Shown piece after piece: positions 1-57,827 of a stretch of DNA of 64,000 nucleotides. Made by a program: the position numbers and the translations under genes. This DNA is from Candidatus Omnitrophota bacterium (lineage in GTDB: Bacteria; Omnitrophota; Omnitrophia; Omnitrophales; Aquincolibacteriaceae): positions 49,720 through 113,719 of the forward strand of contig JAKLIQ010000007.1 of NCBI GenBank assembly GCA_022709525.1. The letters are read 5' to 3'. Under the pieces are notes generated by a model. That model made no database searches and had not been told where the DNA came from. It worked only from the letters and a program-made list of their open reading frames with translations. Every line of letters begins with the position of its first letter. Position 1 is the stretch's first letter.

Positions 1-1
1 C

Positions 2-12000: not shown

Positions 12001-15000
12001 TTGGACCACGGTCTTTGATGGCACGGGTTCCGGGCAAAATTATCAGGGTCTTGAAACCGTCCAATTCAACGCGCAGCAAGTCCGTTATGTCCGGATCAAA
12101 TCGAGCGGCAATACGGTCAATAACGGAGCGCATATCGAGGATATTTCAGCTCGCTACATAGAGAGTTACCAGTCCGCCGGGGCGCCGGCCCCGATCGGCG
12201 GGATCGTGGGTTATACGCATACTTATAATGTGGATTTTGGCTCCGAAGGCGGAGATACGTGGAGCATCTATGCTCCTTATGAGCAACTCGCGGGGTACGG
12301 CGTCAATTATGCCTCATCCGCGCAGGGCGCCACGCTTTTCTCCATCGCGTCGGGGCCTTCTCTCGCCGCGAACGCGATTGATGGGAATAGCGGGACTTTC
12401 TGGATTGCCGGCACCAGCGGCACGCAGAACGAACGACTTTATGAGATGGGCACGATCGACCTGGGTCAGCCCCGCAATATCAACCAGGTCTCTTTTGATT
12501 TTAGCAGCGCGAATAATCGCCTCCACTATAACTATAAGATCGAAGTGATGGACGCGACCGGCCGGTGGCAAACGGTCTTTGACGGGACGGGTTCGGGGCA
12601 GGATTATCAAGGTCGCCAGATCGTTAACTTCAATACCATCAACGCCCGGTATGTGCGCATCTGGTCCAGCGGGAACAGCCACGATACAAGCGGCGCGGCG
12701 ATCGATAACCTCGTTGTTACGCGCAGGCAGCTTGCCGGGGATGAATTGAGCGGCCTCATGGCGGAAGTCCTTGAAAACGGCGAATGGGTTTCGCTGGGTG
12801 AGCTTTCAGCCGATGGGATGTTTTCTTTTACCAAGGCGCTTTCGGGCGTTCAACAGATCCGATTTGCTTCGCCCCTGCCGGAAGATTTTTCGATCAGCGA
12901 GCTAGTGGCCTATCGCGTTTTCAGGGATCCCGGGGTCTCCACCGAAACGCTTCCTCTGATCAGCGAGACTTTTTATAAAGGGACCCGAGGTTCCGAGATT
13001 ATGGATTCCATCGCGCAATACACTTATGTCAATGGGGCGCGGACGAATTCTTCGGTGATCCAGTATTTTTATAAGGATGAAGCCGGCAACGCGCGCAGGG
13101 CGGCCGAGGCGGTCGGACATGACACATGGGAAATTTGGTATGCCGACACGCTGAATTCGCAAGGCGTCGAGCGTCATTTCCTTAATACAATTTCCGGATC
13201 GGCTTTTATGTCAACAGCCACATCCGGCTGGTCACTGGATAGCCAATCTGCCTGGGCGACGGGATCTGATTCCGGCTCTGCGTATTATCTGGCGGATTTT
13301 GGAACGGAAGGGAACGATCTTGAAATTGTTTTGAATGTTCAAAATCACGGCGCAAATCCGATCCCGGGCAGCCGGTTCGATATCAAAGTCGAGGTTTGCG
13401 TCAATACGACATGCTCGGATCCTTCCGACTGGGTTAGCCAGATCGTTTCCGTTGATGCGTCTAGGACGTCCCAGAATATCGCGGCGGTTTTCGGAGGCGG
13501 CCTGACGGGTCAGCATCAAGTTCGTGTTTCCTGGCTGAATTCAACCGAGCAGGCGACTGTCCCAGAATCATTTGCGGCGTACCGGAATAATCTTCAGATC
13601 AATTCTCTGACCTTCAATGAATTCCGGTCGGTGTCGGGTCAATGGACGCTGGATTCCAGAACTTATTATCGGGACGATAAACAAACAATCGATTACGTTT
13701 TAGAATATGACGCGGTGACCGGAGAAGCCGTATCGTATTCGAAAAATATCTACAGTGCGGCGGATGGAGTCATCGGATCAGATGATCTTGCGGCGGTTGT
13801 TCAATACAACATCAGCGGTCAAGCGGACGTCCTTGTCCCGGGAGACGCTGCCGCCGATGACATCACGGGCGTTCAGTTCACGAATCTCTGCACCGATACG
13901 GCGTTGCCGACCACCGCGAATACCCGCGAAAGCGCGTTTCTCTCCAATTTTCTCGCCAATGGTTTGGTTGCGCAGCTTGCGTCCGAGCAGTCGTTCGACA
14001 GGCTGGGTAACAAAGCCGTTCTGGTCTATCAATTTTCTTATGGGATCAACACGAACACTGCGGGGCTTATAGTTTCAACGCTCAATCCTGCGGCAGCTCT
14101 TTATCTTTCTCAGCGGATGGAATATCAGTACCGCGCGAATGGAACGCTTGAGTCGGTGGAAAATTTTATCCAGCGCGCAAGCGGCTGGGCTTTGAACACC
14201 ACCACGTTCTATCAAGCGGATGGTAACGATATCGATTATATCCAGACCCATGTAACGGGAGGCCCAGACACCTTCACCTATTACAGTTATCATGCCTCCG
14301 GAAAGTGGACGGGGGATTACCGTCTCTACATGACCGCGCGTTATTCGGAGAACGGAAATTCCGGCGAGCCGGGCGCGCTCCTGGGGAAAGCTTTCTTTAA
14401 CACGAGCTCCGCTTATATCGCAGAAGGCGAAAGCGCCGCGGGCCGGGTTTACTACGATCCTTTGAAGTATGGCTCACTCATCGTCCGCGCGGAAGACTAC
14501 CAGGCGGTTACGGATGATCTCGCGCCTCTCGCAAACCGGGAACTCGTGAACGGTCTTTTTGTCGCAAGATTTACGACCACGTATTATGACTATGACGCCG
14601 TCACAAAAGAAATGCTTTCATCTTCGTCCTATGCGACGACCTACGCCAGTGGGACCGCTGCTACGGCATGGTCCAGCACGACCGGTTATCGCGCGGACGG
14701 GCAAACTGATTATGCGGTGTCATCCGTAGGTGGAGACCCCAATAACCGGACGCGGACCCAATATAACTATTTAGAACTCGGCCACGGTCTGGATGGCATT
14801 TATCTCTACTCCGAGACAAAGAACGAACTAACGGGCGCGCTCAAATCGCGCGTTTACACAAATGCCGCTGTGGAAGCGGACCTTTTAGGGCTGATCTCCC
14901 TTGATTTTGTGAACGGGTGGCCGGCAGCTCAGTTCGCGACAGCGCTTTATGGTGTTGTCACGCTCACCGTAGAAGAATTCCCGGTCGACCAGGGCCTGGA

Positions 15001-18000
15001 TGCGCTCGGGACGCACCCTTACAGTTTGACGCTTTCAACCTATGCCGTGTCGGGGCGCTTGGCCCGAACCGATCGCTTCTATGTTGCCGAAGGGCAACGG
15101 ACGCTTGAATCGCAAACCTTTTACAAGACCGACGGAACTCGTATCGATTTCATCATCAACTGTAATGCCGCCGGAAAATACGAAAGCAAGGATGTCTATA
15201 TTTACCGCTCCGGCGCTTACAGCCATCTGCTTTATCAGACGGAGCGTTACCACCGGAGCGGGGTACTTACCATGGTATCCACCTTTACCTACTCCATAAC
15301 CGGTTCCGCGCTCCGTTTAACGTCCGTTAGCCATCCCTCGCGGAGCACAGAGACTTTTTACTATACCGCCTCGGGCATTCTCGAGCGATCGGTCATGGTC
15401 AACCACAACGGAAAAAAGCTGCAGGAGACCTTCTACGATTCCGTGACCGGCCTCAAGAACAGAGCTGTTTCTTTCGGGATGGACGGTTCGGTTATCGCCG
15501 AAGAAATCTATGAATACGATGCCGACGGGCGATTAATGAAGTCGACAAGGGCCCAGAAAGACGGGACCGGCCGGGTCATGATAACGACTTACGAAGGCCG
15601 GAAAGGTTTTGAGCGGGCGATAAGCCGCAAGACATACGCCGATGGGAGTCTTACGGATCTCGAACAGGAAACCACATCGGTTTATAACGCCGATGGCAGC
15701 CGCACGGACAAAACGATCGATCACACTGCCGATCCCGATAAAGAGAACGAGGTCTATAAGACCGTGACGGTCTATGACGCCCTGGGACAGAAGGTTTCGA
15801 GTGAAAGCTATGATAAGGCCGGCAAAAAAATCGGGGCGACTTCGAATTACACCTATGATGAGTACGGCCGGGAAAAAACCTACAAAACCTGGTCTTCTAA
15901 AGAGGGATGGCAGCTGGTCCGCATTACCCGCTACAACGATTTCGACCTCGTGACCGAACAGTGGACCGGAGACAAAACCAAATCCGTGATGGAGTATTAC
16001 AACAATTTTACCCTGAAGCGTTCGGACTATGTCGTTTACACGCTTGGGGAAGCGGATATGTTTGGCTGGTCAACCTATAACATTATGGGCGATGAGACCG
16101 GCACGGATTCCGGGCTTATTCCCGGAGGACCGACTGACCGTATGGTCAAAGCTGCGGAAGCTGCCGCAGCTGCAGCCCAAAAAGCGGCGGCGATTGCCCA
16201 GCAAATGGCGACCCGGGCGCAGCAGCAGGCCCAGGAAGCTCAGGATGCCGCAAACGAAGCGCAGGATCGCGCGTCAAGAGCTCAGGACCGGGCAGATGCC
16301 GCCGGCGATGCCGCAGAACGGGCTGAAAACGATATGTTGGCCGCAGAAGCCGAGCGTGATCGCGCTGAGGCGAACCGGCTTCGGGAGCAAGCGAAGGCGG
16401 AGTTGGCCACAGCAAAGCGGCTACTTGAGGAAGCCGCAAGTCTTGCGCGGTCAGCTGCTGCAGCCATGAGAGAAGCGGCGAAGATGATGGATGAGGCCTC
16501 AAAGGCGATGAAAGCGGCAGCGCAGGCCATGAAGGAAGCAACCCAGGCGATGGAGAACGCGCGTGACGCTTACGAGGCGCTGAAGGCTCTCGGAACGCTC
16601 GATGAGGATGCGATCCAGGCGACGATCGACAGTTACAGCGACAGCATCTTGTCGATGCGGGACAGTACGGCCTCCCTATTGGACAATGCGGCGAGTTTGA
16701 GTGATAGCGCCGGCAGTTTAAGGTCTTCGGCCTCCAACATGGATGATGCGGCGGACAGTTACTCCGATATGGCCACCCTGGTAGGCCTGGTTTCCGCGGA
16801 GATGTTTGGCGGGGACGCGAGCACCGGGGAAGGGGCTGTGCTTTGCGATTGGCTTTCACATATCTGTTGGGGCGACGGCTGGGCGTATTTCCAGCTTGGC
16901 GATGACAATGAAGACGGAACAGACGATTCGTTCGTGATCTTTGGCAGCCCCCGTAACGTTACCACCGGAGAAGGAACGCAGATCCATAATTGGACCCTTT
17001 CCGGCGATCAGACCGCAGCTTATTGGGATGGTATTAGCACTATGGGTGACGATGGTTTTCACTGGACCGGCCAGTGGCGTGTGACGGCGGACGGCGACAT
17101 TTTGAACGGGCAAGTGCTTTACACCTATCAGAATTCCGTTTACTACGACGGCGATCATCAGGAAATGGTCTATTACTACAATGCCGCCGGAGATCTGATC
17201 AAGGTTACCTGGGATTACGAGTATAGCGATTCCCAGATGATGAGCGATACAGAAGTCGACAACGAGGGAACTTGGTACAACACGGACTGTGCGGATGGTC
17301 TGGCGGCCTTCAACGCAGACTATGCCGCAAATCCGAACGGCGATTGGGAGCAGAACGACGACGGAACCTGGAGCTTAACAACAAAAGATATTTGCGAATC
17401 TGATGTGACTTGGGTCGGCATCATTTTCGTTATCGTTGTGATTATCATCGCGATAGTCATAACAATTGCGAGCTGGGGCACTGGGACCTGGATCGGCGTA
17501 GCAATGGTCGCCGCGGCATGGGTCTGCATTGCTGTCGCCATTGTGTGTGCTGCCATGATGATCTATAGCAAGCTGACCGGCGATGATGCGTTCGGTCTGG
17601 ATGACACCGAATGGGCGGCTTATTCCGTTCAATTTTCATGTTTGGCTATATCTTTGGGAGCTGGCGCAAGCCGTTTATGGTCGAGTACTTTTTACGCCAG
17701 CTTGGTAACCGGATTTATTAATGCTCTATTCACATACGGAATGACCGGCGATATTGGGAAAGCAATCACCGTCTTTGTTTTAAGCGTTGTTTTGAGCCTT
17801 CTCTCAAAATGGGTACCGTCTAATTACTTTATCGTTAATTTGATCGTTTATTTTGTGATCACCACGTTCGTTTATGCGCTCGCGACTTATCTGACAGCCG
17901 ACGAGGGAACCTACGACTCCTTATGGGATGCCGTGGAGGATGTCTGGGTCTATTGCCTTGTGATTGCGTTTTTTATGGCGCTCTCAGCCCGAAGCAGTAG

Positions 18001-21000
18001 TCAAACCGACGGAAATGCCCCTGGTAAAACAGACTCCACCGCCGCAAATACTCGGGTCAATTCCCTAGATATGAAGTTCAATTGGGGACAAGGCGTCATT
18101 AAATTTTTGCAGTCATCTGCTTCAATATTTTTTGACATGATTATGGCGAGCGATAAAACTGACAAGCTTCTTGGCGACAAATGGGGTCTTAAAGAATATG
18201 ACGAGGATACGCGCGAATATGAGGCGACGACAGCCGGAAAAATTGTAATGTCCGCGATGAATTTTATGGCGACGTTGAGTTACGGAAGCCCCTCGCTTAC
18301 TCTTTGGAATTTTGCTTCAGGTTTGGCGGCTGCTCTGGCGGGAACCTATGTTACCGCCAGGGAGCAAGAGAGCCTGGAGAACACGGGAATGAAGGATTAT
18401 ATTGCCCAATCGCTTGCCGGACAAATTGGAGGAGTTGTAAGCGGACTCGTTGGTATGGCTTCCAAATTGTTGCAATACGCTATCGATTCCGATGTAAGGG
18501 CAACGCTCAAGACGAATGGTTTTAGTCTGCTGGAGTTTCTAAGGGGCCGGTGGGATCCGGCGACGGGTAAATTGCAAGAAGTCACGATCGGTAAGAACGG
18601 ACTCCTGATCGTCGACAATCAATTTTTTAATAAAAAAGGAGACGTTATAGCATCGTTCCAGACCATTGGAAACGAAGCTTTTCAGTACGCAGAAAAAGAA
18701 GCTAAGGGAGCGTATGCAGTTGACGCGGCTTTTCGACAAGGGATTGCGCAACGGGGGGAGAGCGCTTTGACAATAGCGGCACTCCAAGCGGGCGCGACGT
18801 TCACTTTGTCCAAAGATGGCAAGTTGGAGAAAACAAGTTTCGTAAGCCGGGTTCTTTCGTCGCTTTTTGGCGATGTGGCTGCGGGTACGGTTACGGCAAA
18901 GTTCGGAGACTTATCGGTAACCCTCGAGCTTACCGAACAGGGGTTGCTTTCCTATGATGCTGATCGCAATGGGCAATTGGACGTCGGTTCAGCGGCATAT
19001 ACAGCTTTGGCAAGGATTTTCACGAATAATGACACAAAAACTTATGAAGGTTGCGAGAATCTAGTTCAGGATCTTCAAAAATCCCTTGGAAAAGGAGACT
19101 TGAAAGGCGTTGTGAGTGTTAAGTTTGGCGTTGCTGATTTTCGAGCGAATGGGCAGGCCTATGGCGATGTGACATTTTTAGTTTCACGGCAGAGCGTTGC
19201 GATCACCTATCAGCTTGCAGGCGCCACATGGACGGCGATAGGCGCGAATTTCCAAGGCGCTGTTCATGCGATGTTTGTTTTGGATCAGGCGTTAGTTGAG
19301 GCGGGCATTGGCCGGGTTTCGGATTTCTTCAAAAATATGAATTTTGAAATGAAAGACGGAAAGCCCAACGAGACTTTGAGTAAATTTATGAAGTTTGGCG
19401 ATTATCTGTCCAAGAACCTCGGCCGAGGAGAAAGTATAACCGCCACTTTCAATGTCAAATACAATGGAAAAGACTACAGTTTGTCTGCGACCTGGCGGCG
19501 GGGCAGCACGACCTTTGAGTTTAACGCGCGCGCGATTGATGGCAGCCGTGTATTGGTTTCTTTTACGTTTGCGACGACGACGGATGCCATGAAAGCATTC
19601 ATGGCGATTGCGGATTTTGCTGCGACTTTCGACTCCCTTGTTTTTAGTAAGGACAATCTTGGAAAGATCATTGCATTTAGGGATGGTGTTTTTGGTGCGC
19701 TTACAAAAGCGGGGCTTTCGACGGATCGACTTGACCTGACATTTACAAAAGCGGACGGGACCTCGGCCGGAACATTTACGGTATTTGCTGATCCGGGCAG
19801 GTCCGTTCTTTTTAAAGGCGCGACGATTGGCAAAGCGGGCGGGGCGCATTTGGTCCTGATGGGGGAGGCCGTGAGTTTTTCGGATGCTGTGACCGGTCTC
19901 TCGGAACTCGATACAGTCTTAAGCGGTTTCGATGGCTCTTCATCGGGGATGCAAGCGGCTATAAGAACGTTGCTTGCAAGCGACAGTTTCAAGCTTTTTT
20001 CGGGACTCGCTTTGAATTTCATGCAAGGGAATGCGTCGCTTGGTGCGGTTATGTTTGAAAGCGTGGATGGCGTGATGACCGGGCGGTTCATGAATGTCCA
20101 AGTGAATGGCGAGAAAGGTTCGGTCCGGTTGGGAGGGCGTTTTGCCGCCGATCAAGGGGGAGTCGATCAGGCGTTCAATCGTATTAACGGGATGCAGGAA
20201 AAATTGAAGAACTCGGATTTGTCTGGGGACAATGCGGAACAGCTTGCATTTGATGCTGCCTGCGAACTTCTCGGAACGGAAGGGATAGCGTCTGAAGCGG
20301 AACGGAACGCGATGGGAGAGTTCGGGGTTACCCTGTTCGAAAAACAAACTGGGTCGTCCGTCACTTTTCTCCTGACGAACCTCGGAGACGGCATGCTTGG
20401 GCTTCGGGTCCAATTGGATCTGGGAGGCGGTTTTCAGATAACTTCGGGGACCCAATACAAATTCTCTGCGAATGACCCAAGCGCGCGGCAAATAGCATTT
20501 AAGACGGGTTCAGATTGGGCAGCCGGTCTTCAGAAATATGATGTAGGAGACCGGTCGCGAGGTTCAAAGACCGGATTACGGGCGCTTCTGAAAGACGCCG
20601 CCATCTCGTGGAAGGATGAGTTGGCAGCGGCTCCCGTTCAAGGGGTCGAGCGGGTCGCCGGAATTTTAGAAATAACTTTTTCGGGAGAAAATAATACGGC
20701 TTTCAGCCGGCTTGAGTTTAGCGTCCAAAACGGCGTTATTTCCATGCAATATTTCGGACGTATTCTTGGTAACGGGTACGAAGATCTTACCTATTCAACC
20801 ACGCCGATCGAGTTTGGAGAGGGGCATGCGGATATATCCGGCGTCGATTTTGGCGTTGACCTCTATGAGGGAAATTTGCAGTTTAACGAACGGTTTGCTG
20901 GGGACATGAAAGCCCTTGGTTTGCTTAAGGACATCATCAACATGCCCGATAAACCGCGTCTGGATTCTCCGAAAGATCAGATCGGTTTCATCAGCAAAAT

Positions 21001-24000
21001 AAATCTAATGCTCGACAGTCAAGGGGTTTTGCAAGAGACCCTGGGCCAGGAGATCCTCGCCTTTGTTACCGTCGCTTTCTTCGCCGGCACTCCCCTCGAC
21101 CCGATGGGCGTTGGCGCGGATCAGAAGCAGCACATGACCTGGTCTGTTTATGATGAATTGGGAAATGTTGTCGGGCATGCCGGCAGCGTCCAAGGCAATA
21201 CTCTCAGCGTCAACCTGAAAACTCAAACAGCAACGGTTAACGGAGAAGCTTTCAGCATCAAACAAGATGAGCTTGGCAGGGTAACGCTTCAATTTTCCAT
21301 AACGGATAAAGGGAGAGAAACAACGGTCAAGGGTGTCCGTCAAGAATATAGCGTTCTTGACCTGAGCGCTTTCGATTTATCGACGCAGGGAGCCATCCTT
21401 ACCCAGTTAACGAGCATGGGCCTCATCCACAATCAGTTTGAGCTAATAGTAGGTGGGGAACTTGTTGTTGCCGGTTTTGGCGCCGAAGGAGATGTTCTTG
21501 CTTTTTATACAGCACAAATGAAGAAAGATGGTCAAGTTTGGGTAAAGAGCAAGGGAGATATTGTCACCCTGACGCCGGCAGAGGCAACGACTCTTTTAAA
21601 AGAATCAAATAGAAATCTTTATAACTTTTTGAAATTAGAATCTGGTCAGAACGTTTTCTTGAAACCGGCAAGTACGCTCGAGGGAGCTTACATGCAGGAA
21701 GAACAACAGGCGATATGGCGGGATTTGGGAACAGTGGGGATTACGCAGACGACCACAATTCTTGTGGGGACAACATTACAAACTGCCCAACCGGTTTTGT
21801 ATCAATCGCCTGGCATGGGGCAGAACGCATGGATTGTTATAGGGGGCAATGGAAATCAATATGCTTATGATCGAACAGGTCAGGGCTTTGAGGTTTATTC
21901 GGATAAGCCGGTTGAAAGTGGCGTCAAAAATGTAAGCGGCTTAAGTTCGGGAGCGCAGGAAGCCGTAGCAGGCATTCCTGCCAACTATAAAAACGCAACA
22001 ACGCAGGGTCAGATTGATCAATACGCACAGGTTACCCACACGATTACGGATTCGCAAGGCAACGTTTTGAACGGGACGGTCCTTGGCAAAGAACTTGCGA
22101 GCGTTTTTGGTCTTTATGACACCACGGTGCTTATGGCCGGTGGCCAGGCGGTTTGGCAATTCGGCGGGACTAAATTCGATGCCCTGGTCAACAAAACCAT
22201 TGTGCTTCGCGGGCTCGGAGTTAACGAAGGCCAGTACGGGGTCGTGAACGGCGGCTTTTATAAGCCCACCGCTAATCTCCTGAACGGTAAAGCCCAAACA
22301 TTAGCGGGTGTTGACGCCTATCAAAAGAGTCATCCCGAGGCTGCTCAATACAAAATCCTCAATAGCCATACCTTCACGGACGCCAAAGGGAAGCTGGTCG
22401 AAGACGGAACAGTGCTTGATCAGACGCTTTCTAACGCTATGGCTCAAATCACTGGCGCTCGGGAGCAAATTATCCTCATGAATGCGGCCGGCCAGGACAT
22501 CGGCTGGTTCTTTGGATCCGATATTACAGTATTAAATCAAGCCGGCGCTGTTGTCTTCGGCATGGATATGCAGTTTAACGCGAATACAAACAAAGTGGAG
22601 CCAGTAGGGAAACAAGGCTCCGCCCAAGTCAATGAAAACGGCACTTGGAAAAACGTTACGATCTTTGGGACCCGGGACCGCATAGCCGGCACCGCCGCCT
22701 TAAATGGCGGCATCGCTGTCACAGTCCATGGCACGGATTATACGGTCCAAGGCGAGGTAAGCACTGAGCAGTCCCTGGCGATCGAAATGGCCTTAAATAA
22801 CGCTAATGTGATCAGCTACGAGTGGCGGAGCGCCACGGCCTCAGGCGTTGCTTTCTGGGCCAATGGGTCCCTTAACGCTTATATCGCAGATAACCAGCTT
22901 TGGGTGATCGCGCAAGACCGCAACGCCGCAGGCCAGGCCGTTTACTTCCAGCCCGCCACCGCCACGATCGCCGGAACTCTTAAAACCTACAACCGTGATG
23001 AAATGAGTTCAGAACAAGTTGCCGAACTCGATGCTGTGATCGCCAAAGACCCTGCTTTTATGAGCCATGTTTCACTGACCTTAAGCGGTAAGGGGACTAC
23101 GGTCACGGGCTCTGAATTCTATGAATTTACAGTTAATGGCGAACTCCTTGATCCTTCAAGCGTTACGGCCAATATGCTCGGTTCGATGGGTTATCTCACC
23201 TATAACAACGAGACAGTATCAGCAGGCGCAGGAAAGATCTTCTTAAGTGATGGCGCGGCGCTTTCCGCCTCCTTTGCCGCCAATGGAAGCTTTATCTGGG
23301 CTCAGGAGGGGAATACGACCGTCATTAACGGTCTTTATGTTCAAAGCGGCAAAATGAGTCTTGGGGCGAACCATGCGCTTGTCGCAAGCGGCAGCGAGAT
23401 TCGGGTGGTCGGGTCCGATGGAGTAGTGTCTTATAAAAAATCCGTATCTGTGAGCGTGAACGGAATTGCCGGAAGGACAGGCAATGACCTTGCAATTGAT
23501 GGAGAGATCGCTTTCTCGGATGGAACAACGAATTATCTCCTTGGCTTTAACGGCACCCAGCTTGTGGCGGGCCTGCGCGGCACCGACACGCTCTCTTTTA
23601 ACATGCTTAATGCAGCAACCCTTATGACCGGGAATATCACCAATATCGCCTTTATCCAGACCCAATATTACACTTACTCCCTTGACCGGATGCAAAAAGG
23701 TCTTTTTGAGACCGATCTAAGCGGCAAACGCACCCAGGGATGGAATCATGAAACGGGGACGATGCTTGTTTCCACGACCAATAAGACGCAAATCGCAGAG
23801 TGGGCCAATAAAGCGCAGGTAACCGGTGCTTCCGTAAATCTTGAGGGCGGCGGCACGATGCCCGTTGATATTAACGTAAGCTATGCAACCGAGCTTTGGG
23901 TGGGGGCAGGCGGTCTGGCCTTCTTCTTTGCCGGCAGCGATGAAATCGGCGTTTTCCAAGGAGCGCTTACGGCCGGAAGCATGGGGAACCTCAGCTCCGT

Positions 24001-27000
24001 TCTTTTCTATGCCGCTCCCGACGGTACTTATAGTCTGCAGCGTCAGGGGAGTGCGCTTTATGCCTACGACAGCAACCAAAACCTGCTCGGCGCATTCGAT
24101 GTCAGAGATTCGAAAAATGTTGTGTCGTTTAAATGGGACACCGTCGGAAATAACGTAATTGATTTCGATTCCAAAACTGAAGGCGCACAAAAAACACTCA
24201 CGCTTCAAAGTGATACAGAAATAACTTTACGCGAAGCCTCTCATGTTCTTGTAAGCGCCGGAACCGATCCCGCACAAACCATGCGGATTTTCTTGGATGC
24301 CGAATACCAGATCCTCGGCCAGACTTTGGGCGATATCCGAAGCGACCTCTCGATCCTCTTTTTCAAAGGTACAAATGGTGAAATGATCCAGCGCACCGGC
24401 GCAATGCAATTAAGCGCATTTGATGCGTCAGGTCAGTTGCTAGGCCAAAAGGATGTGACACAAGCAGCTTTCGAGCAAGGGCGCCTGATGGGAGAAAAAT
24501 CAACAACCCTCCACCGCTTGGGAACTTCCGAAAAAGCTCAGGCGACCATACGCGCTTATGCAAACACCGCACGTACGGAATTAGCTTATTTATCGGGGCC
24601 GGATTCGACCTTAGCCCCCGGCGATGCGGCAAAGCTGCAATATGGGCTTTACATCGACAATATCCTCATCGCAATCGGTGAATTCAAGAGTTGGGCAAAA
24701 GACGGATCGGTCCTTGCGACCTCGATCCATTTCACAGGGCTTGACGGTACTGAATTCGACGGGCAGGAATTTCTGGTTCTCTCAGGAAAATCCGCCGATT
24801 TTGTTAACGAAGGATTTGAACTTTCGCAGACAAGGCAGATGAATACGGTGAGATCGGATCCCGGCAAGGCGCAAGAAGCGGCTTTTCCTAAGGGCACCAA
24901 TGTCAGCTATGACGGCGGAATTTATGCGGCGGTTGTCCGCGGAGAAAGAAGGATCGAAAATATCAGCGCCCTGACAAGCGACGTGACGCTCCAGGGCTTG
25001 ATTTCGGATTATTACGGATCGGCGCAATTTACCCTCTTTGATCCGGTCACAGGCAACGGAGTGCTTGGCGGAACCATTTTGGATGCGGACCCTGGAGAGG
25101 GTCAGGATTTCAGGCTGGTCGCGCCTAAAGGTTTTGATATCTTTGCCTCGCAACCGGCAGGCGCTGAGGCCGAAGGCTATGCGCATGTTCTTCTGAAGGG
25201 GGCTGCGCTTACCGCTACAGCGATTGGCGCCAATCTTGTGGAGGCAGGATTTAATGAAACGGATGCCGAACGCCTGACCGACCTTTTAGTCGGCCGCGGC
25301 GAGATTCGTGCCGGCGGGATCTCAGGTATCCAAATAACGGACCCTGCGGTAGTAAACGAGGCTTTTAAAAATATTCTCTTTGATTACGTTCAAAATTCCT
25401 CGGTTTTTAAGCAAATGTTCGCTCCCCAGGTGATCTATGCCGGCAATGAACTCTATGGGATCATTTCCATTTCAAGCCCAGCGGACCGGATAGGAACCAA
25501 CGGGAGAGAGGTGATCGGCGTAGTGCATTTGAATAAAGATAATCCTGAGGTCTTATTGTGGGGCGGGTTTGCCACCTCGGGGGAGCTCGGTAAAAATGCC
25601 GTCATCACCATGAGCGCTCACGTCTTTGACCAAGAGGCCTTAAAGGCCGGAAGCTTTATCATCTTGGCCGCCCCCTTCTTTGCAGAGCTTGCGAAAGCCG
25701 AATTTGTTTCCATGAACTGGCTGAATAGTTTCCAGGACCGGATCGTGTCGAACGTGAAAGACGTATCCTTAGTCCAGATCCAATGGGCCGGCGGCTTTTT
25801 GCGCGCGGAGACAACAGTTTCCAATCTCCGTGATTCGATCTCTACGGGAGCGGGCAACACCTTTATGGTTCGCGACTTCCAAAACTCAAAGATCTTGGAT
25901 TCGAAGGGTACGGTGGAATTCAGTTATTCTGCGAATGCGCAAAATTTTATCATTCAATTCACACAAAGTATCGCTGCCCAGAATCTGGTCTTTTTCTCGG
26001 AGGCCGGCCAGCATCTCCTTAATTCGATGATCCTTGCGCTCGGGGCTGGTAATGTCGATCTTAGCACGCAAGCGGGTTTTGATGCCGCAGCGCGCGCCTG
26101 GAGAGATGTTTCTTTTAGGCAGGAAAAAGTGGAACCTTCAGCGTTGGAGCGCAGCTATCCCGGCTCTGCCGCTGATCGGTATGCCTTGGATGCGGAGCCG
26201 TCTCCTTTTGAAAGCGCATTTATGGCAGAGACCGTTTCGACGCTTGCGGGAACTCAATATCAGGAATTTGAGCAGGCGCTTGCGATGGCAGGCGGTATCA
26301 CCTGGACATCTTCGACCGGCCTTGACTCGATTTTGGCCGGTTTCCATAGCGCCTTAGGGGATGCGACGGTTTCAACAACCTTTACCTTAACGCCCCAAAA
26401 GCAAAATTATTATGCTAGCCCCCTGGCACAGCCCACTCCTGAAGGTTATAACCTGAGCGTAAGGGTCAATAATATCAGCAATCTAGGGACGGCTACCTAC
26501 AATCAAGTCGCTGCTTTCTCCAGAGCGCTTGGGGTCAATGTCACGGCAGATCACCTGGATGATCTTTTCGGGAATAATCCGTCGAACCTAAGTCTGGCGA
26601 AGAGTTTTTCAATCTCGTTTAATCCCATGCAAACATCAATAAGTATTTCTGCTACAGGGCAGTTATGGGCTGCCTTTGACCTGAGCGCGCAGGCATCGCT
26701 TGTCCGGTTGACGGGTTTTGCGGCGGATTTCCTTGCCGGGGTTGAGTACACGGCAACGGTTTTCAGTTCAGGAGAAAATCAGCTTTCTATTTCAGGCAAG
26801 ATCAATGGTGCGGCGTGGGATGAGTGGAGAAGCACCCATTCAAATGTGGCGGAGCTCCAGGGAGGTATTGTTTACGGGTTGGCGCCTGAGAGTGCTCTGG
26901 AACAGGATCGTTGGGCTAATGGATTGAGGACAAAGGATGGAAGAATCGCTTTAAGTTATGAGTTTGGAGCGGAGTTTAGCGATCCGCTGATCGGGGAAGC

Positions 27001-30000
27001 AAGCTTCGAGCTGACGCATAGCGTTTATTACGGTGAAAACGGTGTGCCGCTTCAAGTTGATTTAAGGGCGGCAACGGGAGGTCTTTTCAGTGACGCGAGC
27101 TATACAAGTTATGCCATTTCCCGGAACGCCCAGACTGGGTTTTTCCAGGTTTCCATTTCAGGAGGCGATCTGGGTGCCAATGACAGCTTTAATGAGAATT
27201 ATCACCTCTATACCCGCGAAGAGACCAATCATGGTTTTACGACATTTTTGACCAATAACGCCTGGATTGCCGGCGATTTCCATTGCGATCTCGAAAATGG
27301 CTCAAGTTGGGCAGAGTACCATGATTATGCCGCAGAGACATTCCAAGCGGGAGTGATCAGTTTTCAACAATCAATTGAAAAAGCCACGGTATCGATCCAG
27401 CTTTGGACTTCAACTCAATGGAATGAAGGCCATTACGGGAAGCTTGTTCTCGCAGTAGGTGCGATCGCGGTAGGATTTGCGGCCGGAGGGTGGGCCATCG
27501 CCGCAGTCACGGGAACGGGTGCCATTGCTGTAGGCATGACGGCAGTAGTGATTAAAAATATCGCCTGGGGCGTGATCTTCTTTTCTGCTTTTGCCGCAGT
27601 TTCCGTTGCGGGTGGTATTGTCTATGCCGAAAAGCAGAAAAAATTAGTAACAGATCAAGATAACCCGATGGATCCATGGCAGGCCGCCATACAAATATCC
27701 AATGACAGTTGGTGGCTCCACAGGGCTCAGAATTATACCCTTACGACCGCCCTTTTCTTTTTTGCGACCGCGATCGGAACGCCCCTCATGAATCTCGGGC
27801 TGCAGAATGTGGTTGTGCATAGCTGGACTTCGGCGGTCGCAAACTTCTTTAACCGATTTACCTCAAGCGCCTTCGGAAAAGTCATTACCGCACCCTTCCG
27901 ATGGCTTTTTGGGAATGTTTCCGTGGAAGTAATCGCTCAAAAAGAAACTATCGCGGCTTTAAGCCGCTTTGCCGGGGTCAAGGCCTTAGAGGTCGGAGCC
28001 CGCGTATCTTTGACGGGGGCCAATGCGTTTGCCGTCCATCTCATGAGATTTGTTTCCATTAAGGCCCTCTTCGGAAGCGCGATCCATTTGGGCCTCACGC
28101 TTCCATTCCAGATGAATATTGCCGCGAATTTGATTTCAGATATTTTCTATCAGGGGCAGGTCCGTTCCGTTCAGGAACTTGAAGCCACGATGTTAAGCGG
28201 TGGTTGGTCAAGCGGCCGCGGAGGCCTTTTGGGCGTTTGGGATGGTATTAAAAAATCGGTTGCAATGATGTTCTCGCAATCGACGACCGGCTCAGGGCTT
28301 TCCCAAGCGGTCCAGCAATGGTCAACCCCGGAGTTTTGGGTATTTGTGGCTGCCTTTCATTTCCTTTCCTTTATTCCGACGTACTCCGCCGCCGCGGTTG
28401 GAAGATTGGGTGAGTTTATGCTCATCGGCCCCGCGAAAAAGATCTTAGGCGGTTTCGTCCATGCCTTGGGGAGCGTCTTTGGATCTTCGGTAAGCATCGG
28501 GTTGGCGAATTTGCAAGCGGGGGTGGTCAGCTTTATCTGGGGCAGTGGCAGTGTTCTCTGGCAGAGCATCAAGAGTCTTTTTGCGGGTGTTTATGAGGAA
28601 GTTCTAAAAGAGCCGGTTCTGCAAGTTCTTTTACTGTCATGGTTGCCTAGCAGCGCTCAGGAGTATGTGGTGGAACTTTTGGATGCGGCAGATGGCGATA
28701 TGTCGCATTTTATCAGCGCGAGGATGGGAGCGCTCAGCCAAAACCTCCAAGCCTTGGGAGCGGCTGCGCCGCAGGCGATCAAGGGTCTTTCTGTCGGGGC
28801 GCAAAACGATGTTGCAGCAAGACTTAATACGGCCATGATCGCGTTTAAGGCGGGAGATTATACCACCGCCCAAACCAAACTTGCCGAAGCGCTTAATTTA
28901 ATTGGAAGCCAAAAAACCGGGAACCAGCAATTTGACGGCGCGGTCCGTAATCTCCAGGCCATGCAGGCGACCCAGCAAGGGGTTTTAAATCGCTTTAATG
29001 CCGCGCTCCAGGATCCCAATAGTGCTTTGGTTAAGCAATACAGTACGTCGGTCTTATCTGAGATGTATTCGCTTGTTTTCGCCAATCCCTTCATGGACCT
29101 TGGCGCTGTCTCCTCGACGGGGATCGGGGATTTCTCCGGTCTTGCCGCTGTAGCGGCTATTTCTCTTAAACTGTCCGATCCAAAGGTCACCATTAATATC
29201 AAAGGAATGGACGCTAAACTTAATGCCGTGATCGCCAAGCTCCAGAAAGCTGTCGAAGGGATCAGCGATCCCCAGGCAAGGCAGGCGCGCATAAACGCGC
29301 TTGTAGCTAATCTTGCCATAAACGCCTCAGCCCTTACTTATACCGACGCCCAGGGCCAATCGCATGTCAATGAACAGGTTTTAGCGAACGCGGTGCTCGT
29401 TTCACTTGCCGGCGCCGTTACCGCTGAAGCTCTTACTTCTTTTGGTATCAGTCAAAGGGTTATCGATGCTTATGGCTCATTGGAAGGCGAAGTCCAGGCT
29501 GAGTTCCGCCAGGCGCTTTCGGAACGCATCGCTTCCGCAGATGAAAATGCGATCGTTTTTCTCATGATCGGCGCTCAATTGAAGACCGGCTTGAAATCCA
29601 TCGCTAAGGCCGAATCTCTTGCCGGAAAACTCGGTGTTTCCTGGCTGGCCCGTGGCGTCCTCGCTCAAATCGCGACAACAGAAGCCCAGGCAAAAGCATT
29701 GGGCGAGATCCTGATTCAGAATGCCGGCAGTTTTGAATTCTCCAACTTGCTGCAATTCCAGGGCATCTTGACTGCTTCAGTCCTTCTGCAGACAGCGACC
29801 ACAAAAGAACAATTGGTTGCCGCTTTCAACGTTCTTGGAATTACGCTTACAGGCGATCTCTTGGATGCTTTTGAATCGCTTATGACTAGCCGTCCTGATT
29901 TCTTAAAAGACGTTGCCGGCTCTTTAGTGGAATTTGTCCGAAAAGACGGGAAGGTAAGCGCTAGGGATATCCGAAGCACAGTCCTTCTTTCGGTTTTCCG

Positions 30001-33000
30001 GCATGGCGATAAACTTTCAAAAGCAGAAGTCATGAAAGTGACCCAAGCCTTTGGTCAAGAAATCGCCGGCCTCAGCACTTTAGTGCAGGAGCTTGATAAG
30101 CTCGATGAGAGCGTTCTTCCTGTGGTTTTGAAAGCGATCGCTTTGAATGCTTCTGATATGAATTTAACGATCGAAGGCGTCGTTGCCTACAGTCTCAAAG
30201 TAATGGGTGGAATGGCGGTGGCAGATGTCCGAACAAGCGGTGAAACCTTAAAAACCCTTGGAGTTTTTAGCGATGATACGGTTAAGGGCGTCACGGCTGA
30301 TGAATTAGTTGATGATTATGATTCATCTCGCGGCGATCTTGCAGCTGCCTCAAAGGATTATTTAAGAAAGAAAATGCCAGCCGCTCAACAGGTAACGGGA
30401 TCCCAAGCGGTTCCTCAAACCGTTCAGGAAGCAGAGCTTACCCGCGCACAAAACGAGCTTGCGGCGGTCAACGATATTTCAAAGCTCGATGCCGGCACCG
30501 CGATCGGTCTTGCCCAGCGCCTCGCTTTTGCCGAAATGCTTGTTTTTGAGGAGCGTTCCAAAGGGCTTAATCAAGAAGGCTCAACCGCGACGAAGCAGGA
30601 AAAGACCGAGACTTTAAAAACTTATCAGGACGCCCAAGACCAATACGGGAAACTAAAATCTCCGAAATTTTCAAAGGCGGTCTTGGAAGCTCAAGCAAAA
30701 GCCATGGTCAACTGGCTTGTGATCCACGGAGGTCGCACCTCAGCTGTGATCCAGCAGCGGGCGCAATATATGGCCGCCCATCCCGAGACCGGGCCTCCGC
30801 AGATCATTTGGGAGGATCTGCTTAATGAACTGGTCAGCGTTCTTCCTGAGGCTAGTCGCGCCCCCGCCCTTGAACTTTTACGCGGCGATGTGGATGGCGC
30901 TTTAGGGACAATGGAACTTGAAGCAGGGCATAATATTCGCATTTTAGAAGAGAGGGTCAAGCGATCATCCCAGCAAGCTCCCAACGCCAAGGATATGCGG
31001 GCACTTTCTGAGGCGCGTTTCACGGAACGTGCCGCACGCATGGCGCGTATGGAAATCGCCCGTGTTTTTGCTCGTAACACCGCAAGCGCCGAAGAGATCA
31101 CCTTACGTATTAGGGCTGCGGAAAGTAAGCTCGCGGAACTTCAAAAGCAATCCGAAGATCCCACGCTGGCAGCTTCGGTCCAAAATGATCTTATTTTGCA
31201 GCAAGAACAGCTTATCTCCCAGATCACTTTCTTTAAGAGGATCCAGGAGAACATCCGTCTTAATCAGAAAGGAGGGGTTAAGGGGCTTTCTTTCGGTCTT
31301 GAGACAAAAACCTACGCCTTTTTAAATGAACGTGTGACCGATCATGAAGCTGGCGCAAATCCGATCCTGCTTAAATATACGACAAAGCCCAAAACAGACG
31401 GTACCGCGCTTCGCGTGATTCGTGCTGAGACAAGCGAATCGGAGTACCGAAAGGTCGCTAAATACGCCGAAATGTCGCCCGAGCAGCTTGCCGCCGTTAT
31501 CGAGCTTGCCAAGCTTTATAATCAGACGATCGAAATGTGGGAAGCTTTTGTGGGTTGGGATATTGCCTCCCGCAATCAGGTGGAGCAGGGCGTTGCGATC
31601 GCAAATCTTATTTTTAGCCCCAATCTTTTCCACGAGATCCCGACGGGTACCGGGAAAACCTCGACTATTTTTGCTTCGCTCATGATTTTCCATAAGGCGT
31701 TCAAGCAAAGAGCCGAGCAACTTAAATCCGAAAAGGCGGGGACGCAAACCCTTGCGGAGATGCAAAAACTTTACAAAAATTCCGATGGGAGGCTCATTTT
31801 CATTCTTCCCGATCTCAATCTTTTCGAGCAGACCGAAGGGGACATCAAGCCCTTTGCGCAAGGCGGTCTTAAATTTGCGTATTTTACCGAAAAAACGCTT
31901 GATGCGCTTCGCACAGATGAGGCAAAAGGTGTTATTGATGAATTCCAATCGGCCGATGTCGTGATTGTCTTAAACCAAGCCGCAGCGTTCCTGCAGCTTA
32001 ATAAGCAAGCTTCTGAGGCGGACTATAAACGTAAGGTTGGCGCTCCCAAGATTGCGATCGAACGTTTTTATGATATGTTTATGACCAATAACCGCGTTCT
32101 TGCCGACGAAGCCGACACTTGGTTTACGCAGCCTCCGAGCCAAATGGGCGAGGGGGAACGCTTACTTGGAAAGCCCGGATTTGAGTATGAGATCGAGCAT
32201 TCGGCCTTAATTGACCAGGCGATCATGGGCGTTGTGGGCGAAGGAGTTTCGGGCCTTGATGCGCTTGAAGCGCAGCGGCGCATGCTTACGGTTTCTGTCG
32301 TACTTGAGAAGGGCGGCGCGCCCGAGCTTATGTCGTGGGAAGAGTGGCAGAAAAAAGGCGCCCCCGGCCAACTCCTTGATGCGCGTATCGATGGCGTAAG
32401 ATCCAAAGAAGGGGAAGCTGCGATCGCTGCAATTTCCAAAGCTCTCGTTGGGATGCTTGCCAAATACGGTATTACCGCAGATGAAGGAACAGTGAAATCC
32501 TGGCTTCTCCAATCCCCTCAGGAATTCGAACAGCTTCCGGATGCCCGCATTAAAGAAATTATGCGTGAGGCCCGCGCCTCCCTGGTCGGTCGCGCCAAAG
32601 CGATCCGCCAACGCGAGGGCGGCGATGTTGCCAAATACATGCGCCTTGTCCCGATCAAGAAAAATGAAGCGCTTATGAAAGTCTTTACCGGTCGCGAGGA
32701 TCTGGAAGGTGCGGCACTCCAACTGATGCTTCATTTTAACGGTCGTCCCGAAGCACTTCGCGACATCGCAAACGGGAAGGGTAAGTCATATCGCGACGGT
32801 GAGATTCTCTACAATAAAGAGCTTCGCGAGGCCTACGACCTCCTAGTTAAAAACGACATGCTTCGGTATCTTGATAAGTTCGCACCGCGGTGGACGATTG
32901 CAGTTGTTTCCAATAAAACCATTAATCCAAGACTCCAAATGAGCGATCCTTATCTGAATGCTCACACCCAGCTTGTTTTCCTGCGCGCTTATGGCGAGTT

Positions 33001-48802: not shown

Positions 48803-50106
48803 TCATTTCTCCGATAAAAAAATGCCGCGGTTGCGGTAATCCGGACCTTGTCCCCATTGGTAGTCTTGGGACGATGGCGTTTTCCGGCATTTTTCCAAAG
48901 AAGGACGAGGCTTTTGTCCCCGAAGGGCCCCTGGAACTTATGAAATGTCATGGGGACCCGGACCGAGTCTGCGGCCTTTTGCAGCTCAAACATTCCTTCG
49001 ATCCCCATATTCTTTTCGGCGAAAGCTATGGCTACCGATCAGGCCTCAATGGGTCCATGCGCGAGCATTTGCAGGATATCGCCCGCAAAATCAAAGGTTT
49101 TGTCACTCTTAAAGAAAAAGATGTTATCGTGGATATTGGCAGTAATGACGGGACGCTACTCAGTTTTTTTTCCGGAGAAAAACTTTCCTTATGGGGGGTT
49201 GATCCCACAGCCGGCCAATTCAAGAAGTACTATTCCGAAGATGTTCAAATCCTTCCGGAGTTATTTTCTGGGAAACTTATCAAGAAAAGTCTCGGGGTAA
49301 AAAAGGCGAAGGTGGTTACAGCGATCGCTGTCTTTTACGACCTTGACGCTCCGGCGGAATTCCTTAAGGAGGTTCGGGAGATTTTAAGTGATGACGGGGT
49401 CTGCGTCCTGGAGCAAAGCTATTTACCGTTGCTTCTCGAGAATCTTGCCTATGACACGATCTGTCATGAGCATATGGCCTACTATCGGCTCAAACAGATC
49501 CGGTGGCTGGCGGACCGGGTCGGTCTCAAGATCATCCACTGCGAGAAAAATCAGGTCAATGGCGGCAGTTTCTGCGTGGCGTTGGCGCAAAGAAACTCCG
49601 CATTTTCCGAAGATTCGGGAACCGTCAGTCAGTTTATCGAGGAGGAAAAGCGATTGTCGCTGGATACTTTATCTCCCTTTAAGAGTTTTTTTGACAATAT
49701 TTTTAAGCATCGTAAGGCCTTGCAGCGTACGGTCAAAACCCTGCGCGCTGACCGCAAGTGTGTTTTAGGATACGGGGCCTCGACCAAAGGCAACGTTTTG
49801 CTGCAGTTTTGCGGATTCACTCCCGAAGATATCCCGTTTGTGGCAGATGTTAACGAAGACAAATGGGGCCGGGTCTGTCCCGGGACCAAGATCCCGATCA
49901 TTTCCGAGGAAGAAGCCAGAAGTAAAAAACCGGATGTTTTTTTTGTCCTTCCTTGGCATTTTAAAGAAGGATTTTTGATAAAAGAAAAGAAATATCTCCG
50001 CGACGGCGGCGCATTCCTTTTTCCGCTCCCCAAAGTCGATCTTATCGGCTTAAAACAGATTGATTTTCCACCAATTTACAGCCCAGCCGCATCACTAGTC
50101 ACCTGA
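48799..50106 (+). CDS. NDP-hexose C-methyltransferase-like protein (TylC3/Methyltransf_13-14 architecture with N-terminal Zn-ribbon CRGCG)
   Basis: KKCRGCGNPDLVPIGSLG...VDIGSNDGTLL...CHEHMAYY...LGYGASTKGNVLLQF. Last gene of the + strand operon. Confidence 0.65.
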   Translation: MIISPIKKCRGCGNPDLVPIGSLGTMAFSGIFPKKDEAFVPEGPLELMKCHGDPDRVCGLLQLKHSFDPHILFGESYGYRSGLNGSMREHLQDIARKIKGFVTLKEKDVIVDIGSNDGTLLSFFSGEKLSLWGVDPTAGQFKKYYSEDVQILPELFSGKLIKKSLGVKKAKVVTAIAVFYDLDAPAEFLKEVREILSDDGVCVLEQSYLPLLLENLAYDTICHEHMAYYRLKQIRWLADRVGLKIIHCEKNQVNGGSFCVALAQRNSAFSEDSGTVSQFIEEEKRLSLDTLSPFKSFFDNIFKHRKALQRTVKTLRADRKCVLGYGASTKGNVLLQFCGFTPEDIPFVADVNEDKWGRVCPGTKIPIISEEEARSKKPDVFFVLPWHFKEGFLIKEKKYLRDGGAFLFPLPKVDLIGLKQIDFPPIYSPAASLVT

Positions 50107-50487
50107 GACGTTCCTGCTATACCTGAAGGGGGAGGCCAAGGCTGGATTCGCCTTCCAAAAGGGTCAAAAATCGATCAAAAATGGGCTTTTTAGCCATCCT
50201 GCCGGCCGGGATTTCTCTTTGGTCATTCTCGGGAAAAGCCGCTCTAATAGGCTCTTTTTAGGGCCGGTTTTGTAGAGAGAAAAGCGAACCCGAATCTCAC
50301 CAAGTTTTATCCAAACCGTATGAGAAAGCCGCACTTTAACCGGTGCTTTTTAGGATGGATTCCTTTAGCCTTAGCCAGAGAAATCCCTCTCTAGAGAGAA
50401 TAGATACGTCTTATAATGTATCTTATGTAAAGTAGTATAGAGGGAGAGCCGAGCCTGATTTAGAACGCTTTGGGGACGCGGAAAAGA

Positions 50488-50937: not shown

Positions 50938-51020
50938 TTAACTCCTTTGTGTGAAGGTGGTTTATAGTTTATAAAACAAGTTCCTGGGCTGTCAGTCTTC
51001 AGCTTTCAGTCATCAGCGAA

Positions 51021-51057: not shown

Positions 51058-51062
51058 ATTAT

Positions 51063-56936: not shown

Positions 56937-56956
56937 AGAGTTCTCCTTTTTAGTGA

Positions 56957-57814: not shown

Positions 57815-57827
57815 GGAAACCTCCGCT

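Follow-up and report, generated by a model that had tools for sequence, protein, structure and literature searches.

The window analysed here comprises 64,000 nucleotides (nt) of contig JAKLIQ010000007.1 (positions 49,720 to 113,719, forward strand), which belongs to the assembly GCA_022709525.1 of a Candidatus Omnitrophota bacterium. Most of its first two thirds is occupied by one giant open reading frame (ORF) on the plus strand. In the ORF listing, the first ATG of this ORF lies at position 35, the frame ends at 40771, and the translation comprises 13,578 amino acids (aa). The listing contains no stop codon across these 40.7 kb and no ORF of similar size overlapping the giant one. The encoded protein combines a long repeat-rich N-terminal part, two separate hydrophobic clusters, and a C-terminal part that contains a superfamily 2 (SF2) ATPase with SecA-like motifs. 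With moderate confidence, it is interpreted as a giant cell-surface protein of a kind typical of Omnitrophota, anchored in the cytoplasmic membrane and equipped with a C-terminal cytoplasmic ATPase module. The features of the giant gene, including its transmembrane (TM) clusters, are as follows.

2..40771, plus strand: giant ORF; frame open from base 2 and cut at the 5' window edge
2..13500, plus strand: repeat-rich N-terminal region (aa 1 to ~4500) with tandem ~110-130-aa units, DUF4214-like repeats and other internal repeats
12356..12673, plus strand: best of three F5/8 type C domains (discoidin, NedA-like galactose-binding; aa ~4108-4213), from Pfam
16802..17407, plus strand: acidic Trp/Tyr/Asp-rich segment before TM cluster 1 (aa ~5590-5791), from sequence inspection
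17408..17989, plus strand: TM cluster 1 (aa 5792-5985), five strong and two weak hydrophobic segments
17990..27442, plus strand: middle region (aa 5986-9136), Gly/Thr/Phe-rich and non-repetitive
27443..27628, plus strand: TM cluster 2 core (aa 9137-9198), a 62-aa Gly/Ala-rich hydrophobic stretch
27629..28729, plus strand: amphipathic, membrane-associated helical region (aa 9199-9565), moderately hydrophobic
28730..31432, plus strand: Ala/Leu/Gln-rich linker between membrane domain and ATPase (aa 9566-10466), from composition
31433..34366, plus strand: predicted SF2, SecA-like ATPase (aa 10467-11444), from its motif series
31637-31660, plus strand: Walker A / SF2 motif I, IPTGTGKT (FHEIPTGTGKTST, aa 10535), from motif inspection
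32105-32116, plus strand: motif II, DEAD (LADEADTW, aa 10691), from motif inspection
Plus strand, within the ATPase: further motifs PRLQMSDPYLNAHTQLVF (aa 10965), GFSGTL (aa 11049), RGID (aa 11317) and QLFGRHRGVR (aa 11344), from motif inspection
37610..39733, plus strand: conserved C-terminal domain block (aa 12526-13233), matched by phmmer to the relatives P0010 (2.9e-48) and L009 (7e-42)
39311-39325, plus strand: HExxH motif (HEITH, aa 13093), from motif inspection
40013..40771, plus strand: conserved C-terminal domain (aa 13327-13578), matched by phmmer to the relatives P0002 (1e-24) and P0007 (2e-7)
40049-40063, plus strand: HExxH motif (VHELIH / HELIH, aa 13339), followed by E..AY, from motif inspection

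Kyte-Doolittle (KD), Wimley-White and Hessa scans confine TM-grade segments to two clusters, and the other 13,000 residues are without any. Windows beyond the thresholds (KD of at least 1.6 in 19-mer windows; Hessa dG below 4) fall within aa 5785-5988 and aa 9134-9252, the one weak exception being a peak at aa 9782. Counted without regard to position, hydrophobic windows are no more frequent than expected from shuffling, and only their clustering exceeds chance. Cluster 1 holds six non-overlapping hydrophobic 19-mers in 250 aa, while composition-preserving shuffles reach a maximum of four (in 7 of 300). Its five strong segments (aa 5792-5812, 5819-5845, 5909-5926, 5932-5953, and 5970-5985) are 16-27 residues long and are accompanied by two weak ones (aa 5860-5878 and 5886-5905). 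The loops in this cluster are short and polar, two of them being strongly acidic (aa 5846-5859 and 5954-5969). Cluster 2 is TM-grade only in its first 62 aa, and the remainder, up to ~aa 9546, is amphipathic and moderately hydrophobic. An AlphaFold2 (AF2) model of the cluster 2 domain, built from a 5-row alignment, places two helices in the core (aa 9133-9158 and 9166-9206), followed by an all-helical amphipathic region, at a predicted local distance difference test (pLDDT) score of 37. A helical hairpin is the most likely form of this core. The amphipathic region ends in two family-conserved motifs, YEEVLKEP (nt 28592-28615) and EYVVELLDAADG.

A first-pass annotation, made from the sequence of the window alone, had proposed two separate TM clusters at 17400-17990 and 27430-28580. 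Two clusters are indeed found, with TM-grade segments in aa 5792-5985 and 9137-9198 only. The first proposed interval agrees with 17408-17989. The second is TM-grade only within 27443-27628 and amphipathic beyond; its proposed end at 28580 coincides with the first of the conserved closing motifs, of the form EExxxEP.

The ATPase domain shows the fold of a two-RecA DEAD motor with Walker A and DExD motifs. Its motifs are ordered much as in SecA, with a large insertion separating motif II from motif III and with an SD..L..HxQ motif. The spacing from motif V to motif VI is DEAD-box-like. The insertion comprises ~270-350 aa, lies where SecA carries its preprotein cross-linking domain within NBD1, and ends with PRLQMSDPYLNAHTQ, which resembles RRWSDGLHQAVEAKE of SecA; the model has a pLDDT of ~32-81 per 10-residue block in this part. 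The context of motif III reads GFSGTL..YG in the giant protein and GMTGTA..IY in Escherichia coli SecA. In an hhalign comparison with E. coli SecA, this context is the sole local match (TLGGFSGTLGHV...MYGARMLRYVENNP versus KLAGMTGTADTE...IYKLDTVVVPTNRP, E 0.09). The AF2 model of aa 10467-11444, based on an 8-sequence alignment, has a mean pLDDT of 64.5, with a confident first RecA domain. Foldseek searches with this model return DinG and Bacillus subtilis SecA as top matches with a probability of 1.0, and SecA is aligned over ~940 columns.

Profile searches come close to general helicase families and do not recover SecA. ResIII (Pfam) just attains its cutoff of 22.5 bits, with a score of 22.5 on a piece of 400 aa, and scores 20.3 and 17.6 bits on longer pieces, while DEAD (Pfam) reaches 18.6 bits against a cutoff of 26. 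Either DEAD or ResIII is matched by four of eight relatives in Pfam. SecA_DEAD (PF07517) and SecA_PP_bind (PF01043) are absent at E<=10 for the giant protein and at E<=0.1 for eight family members, and SecA_SW has no Pfam match in the giant protein. Comparison of the ATPase-family profile with PDB sequences yields only motif I of BLM (E 0.6), and phmmer queries with aa 5501-9500 or with the 4,078 C-terminal aa retrieve nothing but chance matches from PDB sequences. No NCBIfam match is obtained for aa 5501-13578, and permissive Pfam searches give nothing below E 0.1 in the acidic segment ahead of cluster 1, in the middle region, or over the final 2,800 aa. The linker at aa 9566-10466 has no family matches; the equivalent spacer of relatives measures ~580-1,200 aa. 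The ATPase is an SF2 enzyme whose closest known relative is probably the SecA motor, also its best match in structure, and it is not filed as SecA. The term SecA-related would denote a resemblance in predicted fold and motifs, without a Pfam match.

Relatives of the ATPase are few. A HMMER search with aa 10481-11680 against 1.84 billion representative proteins returned 14 matches, namely the giant protein's own fragment and 13 others, which include giant proteins of 5,450, 7,525, and 5,761 aa. None of these matches is longer than 7,836 aa, so that larger giants such as the 39,678-aa protein of V. archaeovorus are not among the detectable relatives. Six further loci, each with a giant ORF, were added by a motif-based scan of JGI metagenomes that used a 6-sequence motif alignment. 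A word-index homologue search (aa 10401-11800; aa 7250-7849) missed even the identical protein P0001 contained in the collection, so that its negatives are uninformative. The labelled relatives are mostly metagenome-assembled genomes of Omnitrophota, and P0002, P0004, P0005, and P0010 are labelled Candidatus Omnitrophota by NCBI. For one relative, P0014 (MCK5600406.1), the label reads Candidatus Pacearchaeota archaeon, possibly as a result of a contaminated bin or of transfer.

The longer members of the family have a much alike ordered series of motifs, consisting of IP(T/A)G.GK, DE(A/V)D, APRLQQSDPYL.AHTQLVF, GFSGT, ATRG.D, and QL.GR.RGVR. By phmmer, the homology of relatives to the giant protein covers aa 10431-11989, 12520-13235, and 13327-13576, and thus reaches the C-terminus. 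In P0002, P0007, P0008, P0011, L008, L009, L010, and L012, but not in L011, Walker A is preceded by TM clusters at a distance of 600-1,900 aa; P0007 has two separated TM clusters, as in the giant protein. The membrane region itself is too diverged for phmmer. In every member it closes with EExxxEP followed by Y(I/V)VE(F/L)..PGG, and the members have other positional motifs in common. Because these closing motifs are shared, cluster 2 belongs to the conserved module, which extends from TM cluster 2 to the C-terminus and comprises about 3,100-4,400 aa. Cluster 1, the middle region, and everything N-terminal to them are lineage-specific.

Downstream of the ATPase, the module contains two domains with HExxH motifs, for which no family match was found. 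The second HExxH is kept in the alignment of complete C-termini in six of nine cases (the giant protein and P0002, P0007, P0008, P0010, and L008-L011). These may be putative zinc-peptidase domains, as suggested by their motifs. Each of the nine complete C-termini has [A/S]A as its last two residues (AQAA, ASSA, ASAA, LIAA, ARAA, ASSA, KTSA, KRAA, and QSAA), and this end comes after an amphipathic helix. The last four codons of the giant gene, encoding AQAA, are located at window positions 40757-40768. We take this terminus to resemble ssrA-type C-terminal recognition signals for proteases and unfoldases. Glu, Lys, Arg, and Leu are abundant in the C-terminal 4,000 aa, and the Cys content of the ATPase region is ~0%.

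The N-terminal part is of a different nature. Self-BLAST restricts internal repeats to aa 1-4500. Pfam detects DUF4214 (E 2.8e-13) and three F5/8 type C (discoidin) domains, with PF22633 (E 1.6e-35) and PF00754 (E 1.1e-32) each matching three stretches. The composition is acidic, with abundant Thr, Ser, and Tyr, and the last 100 aa ahead of cluster 1 contain 2 K+R and 21 D+E. The first-pass annotation had listed DUF4214-like repeats, discoidin domains, lectin-like domains, and YD repeats, followed by an acidic segment. Discoidin, DUF4214, and the acidic segment are borne out. For lectin-like domains, Pfam offers no support at E<=0.01, and the YD-like motifs of the acidic segment are recognisable by eye only (YYYNAAGDLIKVTWDYEY), RHS_repeat (PF05593) having no Pfam match at E<=0.01 in the ORF or at E<=1 for aa 5001-5800. 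Across the whole ORF, neither the dockerin/EF-hand family nor thrombospondin type 3 (TSP3) repeats were matched (PF00404, PF18884; E<=0.01), and C39, S8, and GNAT domains as well as HemolysinCabind (RTX) repeats were not detected by Pfam. There is no TM-grade segment in aa 1-5784. The N-terminal part is most likely extracellular, where it would bind carbohydrate or protein on the surface of a host or prey.

This part is longer than the window reveals. The ATG at position 35 is not the true start, and the residues preceding it, DGWSFVETRQ, continue the tandem repeat of later copies. Contig CAYYFL010000053.1 (3,378 nt) has 100% identity to window positions 1-1115 and remains in one open frame for 2,263 nt farther upstream. 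This extension (locus L006, 1-2263) adds at least 754 residues of tandem 110-130-aa repeats with the pattern FSMTISGG.TSYSW.D.ETGRRF...SFSETIEMTRAAFE. The size of the protein is therefore a lower bound of at least ~14,340 aa. The ~5,800 residues originally attributed to the N-terminal part are correct within the window and likewise a lower bound, as this part comprises at least 6,500 residues.

Between the two clusters lies the middle region, for which no homologue or Pfam family was detected. It contains 10-13% Gly, with high Gly, Thr, and Asn, in agreement with the composition first noted for it, as is the Glu-, Lys-, Arg-, and Leu-rich composition of the C-terminal region. A composition log-likelihood test places the middle region between the N- and C-terminal parts, with aa 7250-8000 and 8750-9250 being N-terminal-like. 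Lys amounts to 5-7% over aa 6000-7500 and falls to 2-4% over aa 7500-9000. The flank charge and this drop in Lys would fit a cryptic extra crossing near aa 7000-7250, where weak peaks only are seen (aa 6998-7025 and 7137).

Since the ATPase has intact Walker A and DEAD motifs, the C-terminal part must be cytoplasmic. With the N-terminal part most plausibly outside, an odd number of membrane crossings must separate the two. If cluster 1 crosses an odd number of times (5 or 7), the acidic loops and the very acidic N-terminal flank share one side, and the more basic C-terminal flank is on the opposite side. Cluster 2 has Lys on both flanks. An analogous Gly/Ala-rich stretch of 57 aa follows the ATPase in P0002 (aa 3783-3840), flanked by domains homologous to contiguous parts of the giant protein. 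As these domains are contiguous in the giant protein, and hence on the same membrane side, the stretch of P0002 crosses an even number of times. Together with the Lys flanks and the two-helix AF2 model, this favours a hairpin for cluster 2. Such Gly/Ala-rich stretches serve as in-and-out membrane tethers in the ATPase-module family. An extra Gly/Ala-rich stretch ~1,500 aa past Walker A also occurs in L007, L008, and L010, and the giant protein is without it.

The charge pattern of cluster 1, taken together with a hairpin in cluster 2, favours a topology in which the N-terminal part is outside and both the middle region and the C-terminal part are inside. This arrangement is put forward tentatively, a cytoplasmic middle region being slightly favoured. 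In the alternative arrangement, which is rated only a little less probable, cluster 1 crosses an even number of times as a mid-chain anchor, cluster 2 amounts to a net single crossing, and at least ~9,900 residues are outside. It would suit the 100 aa ahead of cluster 2, which are acidic and poor in K+R (3 versus 13) and thereby resemble the flank ahead of cluster 1, as well as the N-terminal-like stretches and the high Gly, Thr, and Asn of the middle region. Three short helices could fit the 62-aa core, and according to West-Roberts et al. (10.1101/2023.11.21.568195) such proteins are predicted to be extracellular for the greater part of their mass. However, with six crossings in cluster 1 the membrane would separate its two strongly acidic loops, and the basic C-terminal flank would lie outside, and the first 1,500 aa past cluster 1 have the 5-7% Lys that is typical of the cytoplasmic part. 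The even number of crossings required for P0002 and the two helices drawn by AF2 in the cluster 2 core, at a pLDDT of 37, also argue against a net single crossing.

The C-terminal motor could instead be a nucleic-acid helicase or translocase, that is, a membrane-tethered SF2 enzyme handling the DNA or RNA of a host or prey, or acting in defence. This assignment is considered unlikely. Both the surroundings of motif III and the SD..L..HxQ motif are SecA-specific, and in most relatives the motor is fused to the conserved membrane domain. Neither Pfam nor NCBIfam detected nucleic-acid-binding, nuclease, or Fe-S domains, and PADLOC found no match to any defence model in aa 9110-13578.

It is very improbable that the hydrophobic clusters are not membrane-spanning but form buried cores or lipid-interacting patches in a wholly cytoplasmic or secreted protein. 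Hydrophobicity is only moderate in the weaker segments (aa 5860-5905 and 9234-9546), and West-Roberts et al. (10.1101/2023.11.21.568195) call TM predictions on giant proteins unreliable. The segments of cluster 1 are nevertheless extreme. The strongest, VGIIFVIVVIIIAIVITIA, reaches a KD of 3.52 and a summed Hessa dG of -5.8, and the segments are 18-27 residues long with short polar loops between them. They are thus TM-grade and not like the buried beta-core that had been named as an alternative in the first-pass annotation. The remaining 13,000 residues are free of hydrophobic segments, and relatives have equivalent clusters at the same position despite sequence divergence.

A separate NCBI record, HOW87841.1 (P0001; 7,836 aa), labelled Candidatus Omnitrophota, is identical over aa 5598-13433. 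As this identity spans both clusters and the ATPase, the fusion is not peculiar to the present assembly. An assembly chimera or pseudo-fusion of separate genes can hardly be credited, even though giant repeat-rich genes are prone to misassembly and CAYYFL010000053.1, from the GTDB collection, has a run of N inside the repeats, given the stop-free 40.7 kb, the identical record, and the single ORFs of relatives from other metagenomes that keep the order of TM cluster, ATPase, and C-terminal domains.

The coupling of an adhesin-like part to a large cytoplasmic part, as first proposed, is hence upheld by the intact Walker A and DEAD motifs of the C-terminal SF2/SecA-like ATPase. In the proposed cell-surface protein, TM cluster 1 would anchor the outer part in the membrane, while the Gly/Ala-rich hairpin and the amphipathic helices would tether the module to the inner membrane face. 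The module would then be arranged as membrane tether, long helical spacer, SF2 ATPase, two HExxH domains, and [A/S]A C-terminus. The cytoplasmic ATPase may use ATP to move polypeptide through or along the membrane, acting most likely on a partner protein or on the exported portion of the giant protein itself. If they are peptidases, the HExxH domains may process the polyprotein.

Several observations weigh against this interpretation. No signal peptide is visible, and the true N-terminus lies beyond the window. The relative P0007, whose N-terminus is apparently complete, has no hydrophobic segment for 2,470 aa. The missing N-terminus and the lack of an N-terminal hydrophobic segment in P0007 leave the export of the N-terminal part unexplained. 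The number of helix crossings per cluster is not fixed by hydrophobicity scans, and the model of cluster 2 has a pLDDT of only 37. The charges of loops and flanks, suggested at the outset as a check on topology, group the acidic loops of cluster 1 when its count is odd, but the flanks of both clusters run from acidic to more basic and fit neither simple topology cleanly. CAYYFL010000053.1, which represents the same DNA, is labelled 'uncultured Planctomycetia bacterium'. Of the domains of published Omnitrophota giants, dockerin, TSP3 repeats, and C39 are not seen in the window, and EF-hand, S8, and GNAT are not detected in the ORF. Their secretion-system and pilZ neighbourhood is likewise not visible in the 23 kb downstream, where a sugar-modification cluster is found instead; the upstream side falls beyond the window edge.

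A bolder proposal views the module as a translocation machine that is complete in itself and acts in cis. With a membrane conduit and an ATP motor of its own, a giant protein lacking a signal peptide would thread, and perhaps retract or remodel, thousands of its N-terminal residues across the membrane post-translationally, while processing or turnover would be under the control of the HExxH domains and the Ala-Ala tail. This is regarded as improbable. If true, the export route would differ from Sec and Tat as well as from the numbered secretion systems. A motor that exports or remodels its own outer part would also explain how chains of more than 10,000 residues arrive at the surface without obvious signal peptides. 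In the small genomes of Omnitrophota, giant genes account for several per cent of the sequence, and they are believed to act in the attachment to, and attack on, host or prey cells.

The remainder of the window contains the following genes.

40927-41487, plus strand: AbiEii-like nucleotidyltransferase, directly downstream of the giant gene
40927-50106, plus strand: the AbiEii-like gene and, following it, a sugar-modification cluster encoding GDP-mannose 4,6-dehydratase, methyltransferases, DegT aminotransferase, GT2, and C-methyltransferase
43501-44943 and 44940-46382, plus strand: two tandem paralogous B12-binding radical SAM enzymes, in the sugar-modification cluster
51063-63531, minus strand: Bat-type aerotolerance operon, then DnaK, a methyltransferase, and a sigma-54 response regulator with a histidine kinase

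Beside the AbiEii-like gene, a small ORF of 65 aa is called in related contigs. The sugar-modification cluster might glycosylate a surface structure. The Bat-type operon encodes TPR-VWA, BatA-VWA, DUF58, and a MoxR AAA+ ATPase. In 2-kb bins, the AT skew is -0.33 at 50001-52000 and -0.24 at 58001-60000, compared with ~0 to -0.1 elsewhere; these bins contain largely minus-strand genes. Genes neighbouring the giant gene occur in anaerobic-digester metagenomes; JGI 3300009776 and 3300009838 are examples of digester samples in which this locus is present.

Among known systems, RTX giant adhesins such as LapA, SiiE, and MpIBP are likewise very long, repeat-rich, and acidic, and carry lectin- or discoidin-type ligand-binding modules. 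They have no TM helices or cytoplasmic motor, are exported by an ABC transporter via a C-terminal signal, and are retained in the outer membrane. An identity as an RTX adhesin of a type I secretion system is rejected in view of the TM clusters and the lack of a HemolysinCabind match. An Rhs toxin or YD-repeat protein is rejected as well, there being no match to RHS_repeat (PF05593) at E<=0.01. DinG/XPD and RIG-I-like SF2 helicases differ from the ATPase described here in several respects. The Cys content of ~0% excludes an Fe-S cluster, no nucleic-acid-binding accessory domains are detected, and the motor is fused to a membrane domain.

SecA (E. coli 3bxz and 2fsf; B. subtilis 1tf5 and 3jv2) shares the two-RecA DEAD motor and the order of motifs, which runs from Walker A and DExD through the large insertion to SD..L..HxQ, G(M/F)(T/S)GT..(I)Y(G/K)(L/V), RG.D, and QL.GR.(G)R. 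In contrast, sequence identity is 9-14% with no significant profile match, and the insertions here are two to three times longer. Scaffold, wing, and C-terminal linker domains of SecA are not found in the giant protein. Its motor is covalently joined both to a membrane domain of its own and to a chain exceeding 10,000 aa, and the spacing of motifs V and VI is that of DEAD-box proteins.

The closest counterparts are the giant proteins of Omnitrophota, very small bacteria that live as predators or parasites. In Omnitrophia, as stated by Seymour et al. 2023 (PMC10066038), the majority of giant ORFs combine multiple TM helices with extensive extracellular adhesion domains, discoidin among them. 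West-Roberts et al. 2023 (10.1101/2023.11.21.568195) describe giants of the Dockerin type with a TM-free, discoidin-bearing N-terminal majority, C-terminal-proximal TM anchors, and subsequent SecA-related domains, suggest that either the giant protein itself or accessory proteins are exported by the motor, and report SecA scaffold and wing domains to be absent in other giant proteins too. Nielsen & Lui 2026 (10.64898/2026.06.07.730766) give DeepTMHMM topologies of 916 long proteins and one SecA-DEAD architecture cluster. The present protein agrees with these giants in having an ORF of more than 10,000 aa, few annotatable domains, and high divergence; its genome carries an Omnitrophota label, against the Planctomycetia title of one contig with the same DNA. 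It also shares the multiple TM helices with discoidin, the TM-free N-terminal majority, and the TM anchors toward the C-terminus, followed by a SecA-related ATPase without recognisable scaffold or wing domains. It differs in that its ATPase never reaches Pfam SecA_DEAD and in having two widely separated TM clusters around a 3,100-aa region. The conserved C-terminal module, with its EExxxEP domain, HExxH domains, and [A/S]A end, finds no mention in the accessible portions of the published descriptions. The first-pass annotation had regarded the overall design as an undescribed architecture class, a view that does not hold, as all three papers describe it; the present case confirms their architecture and overturns nothing. 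What it adds is a compact working handle on such proteins, a Pfam-invisible module of a very small family that pairs a membrane domain with a SecA-like ATPase.

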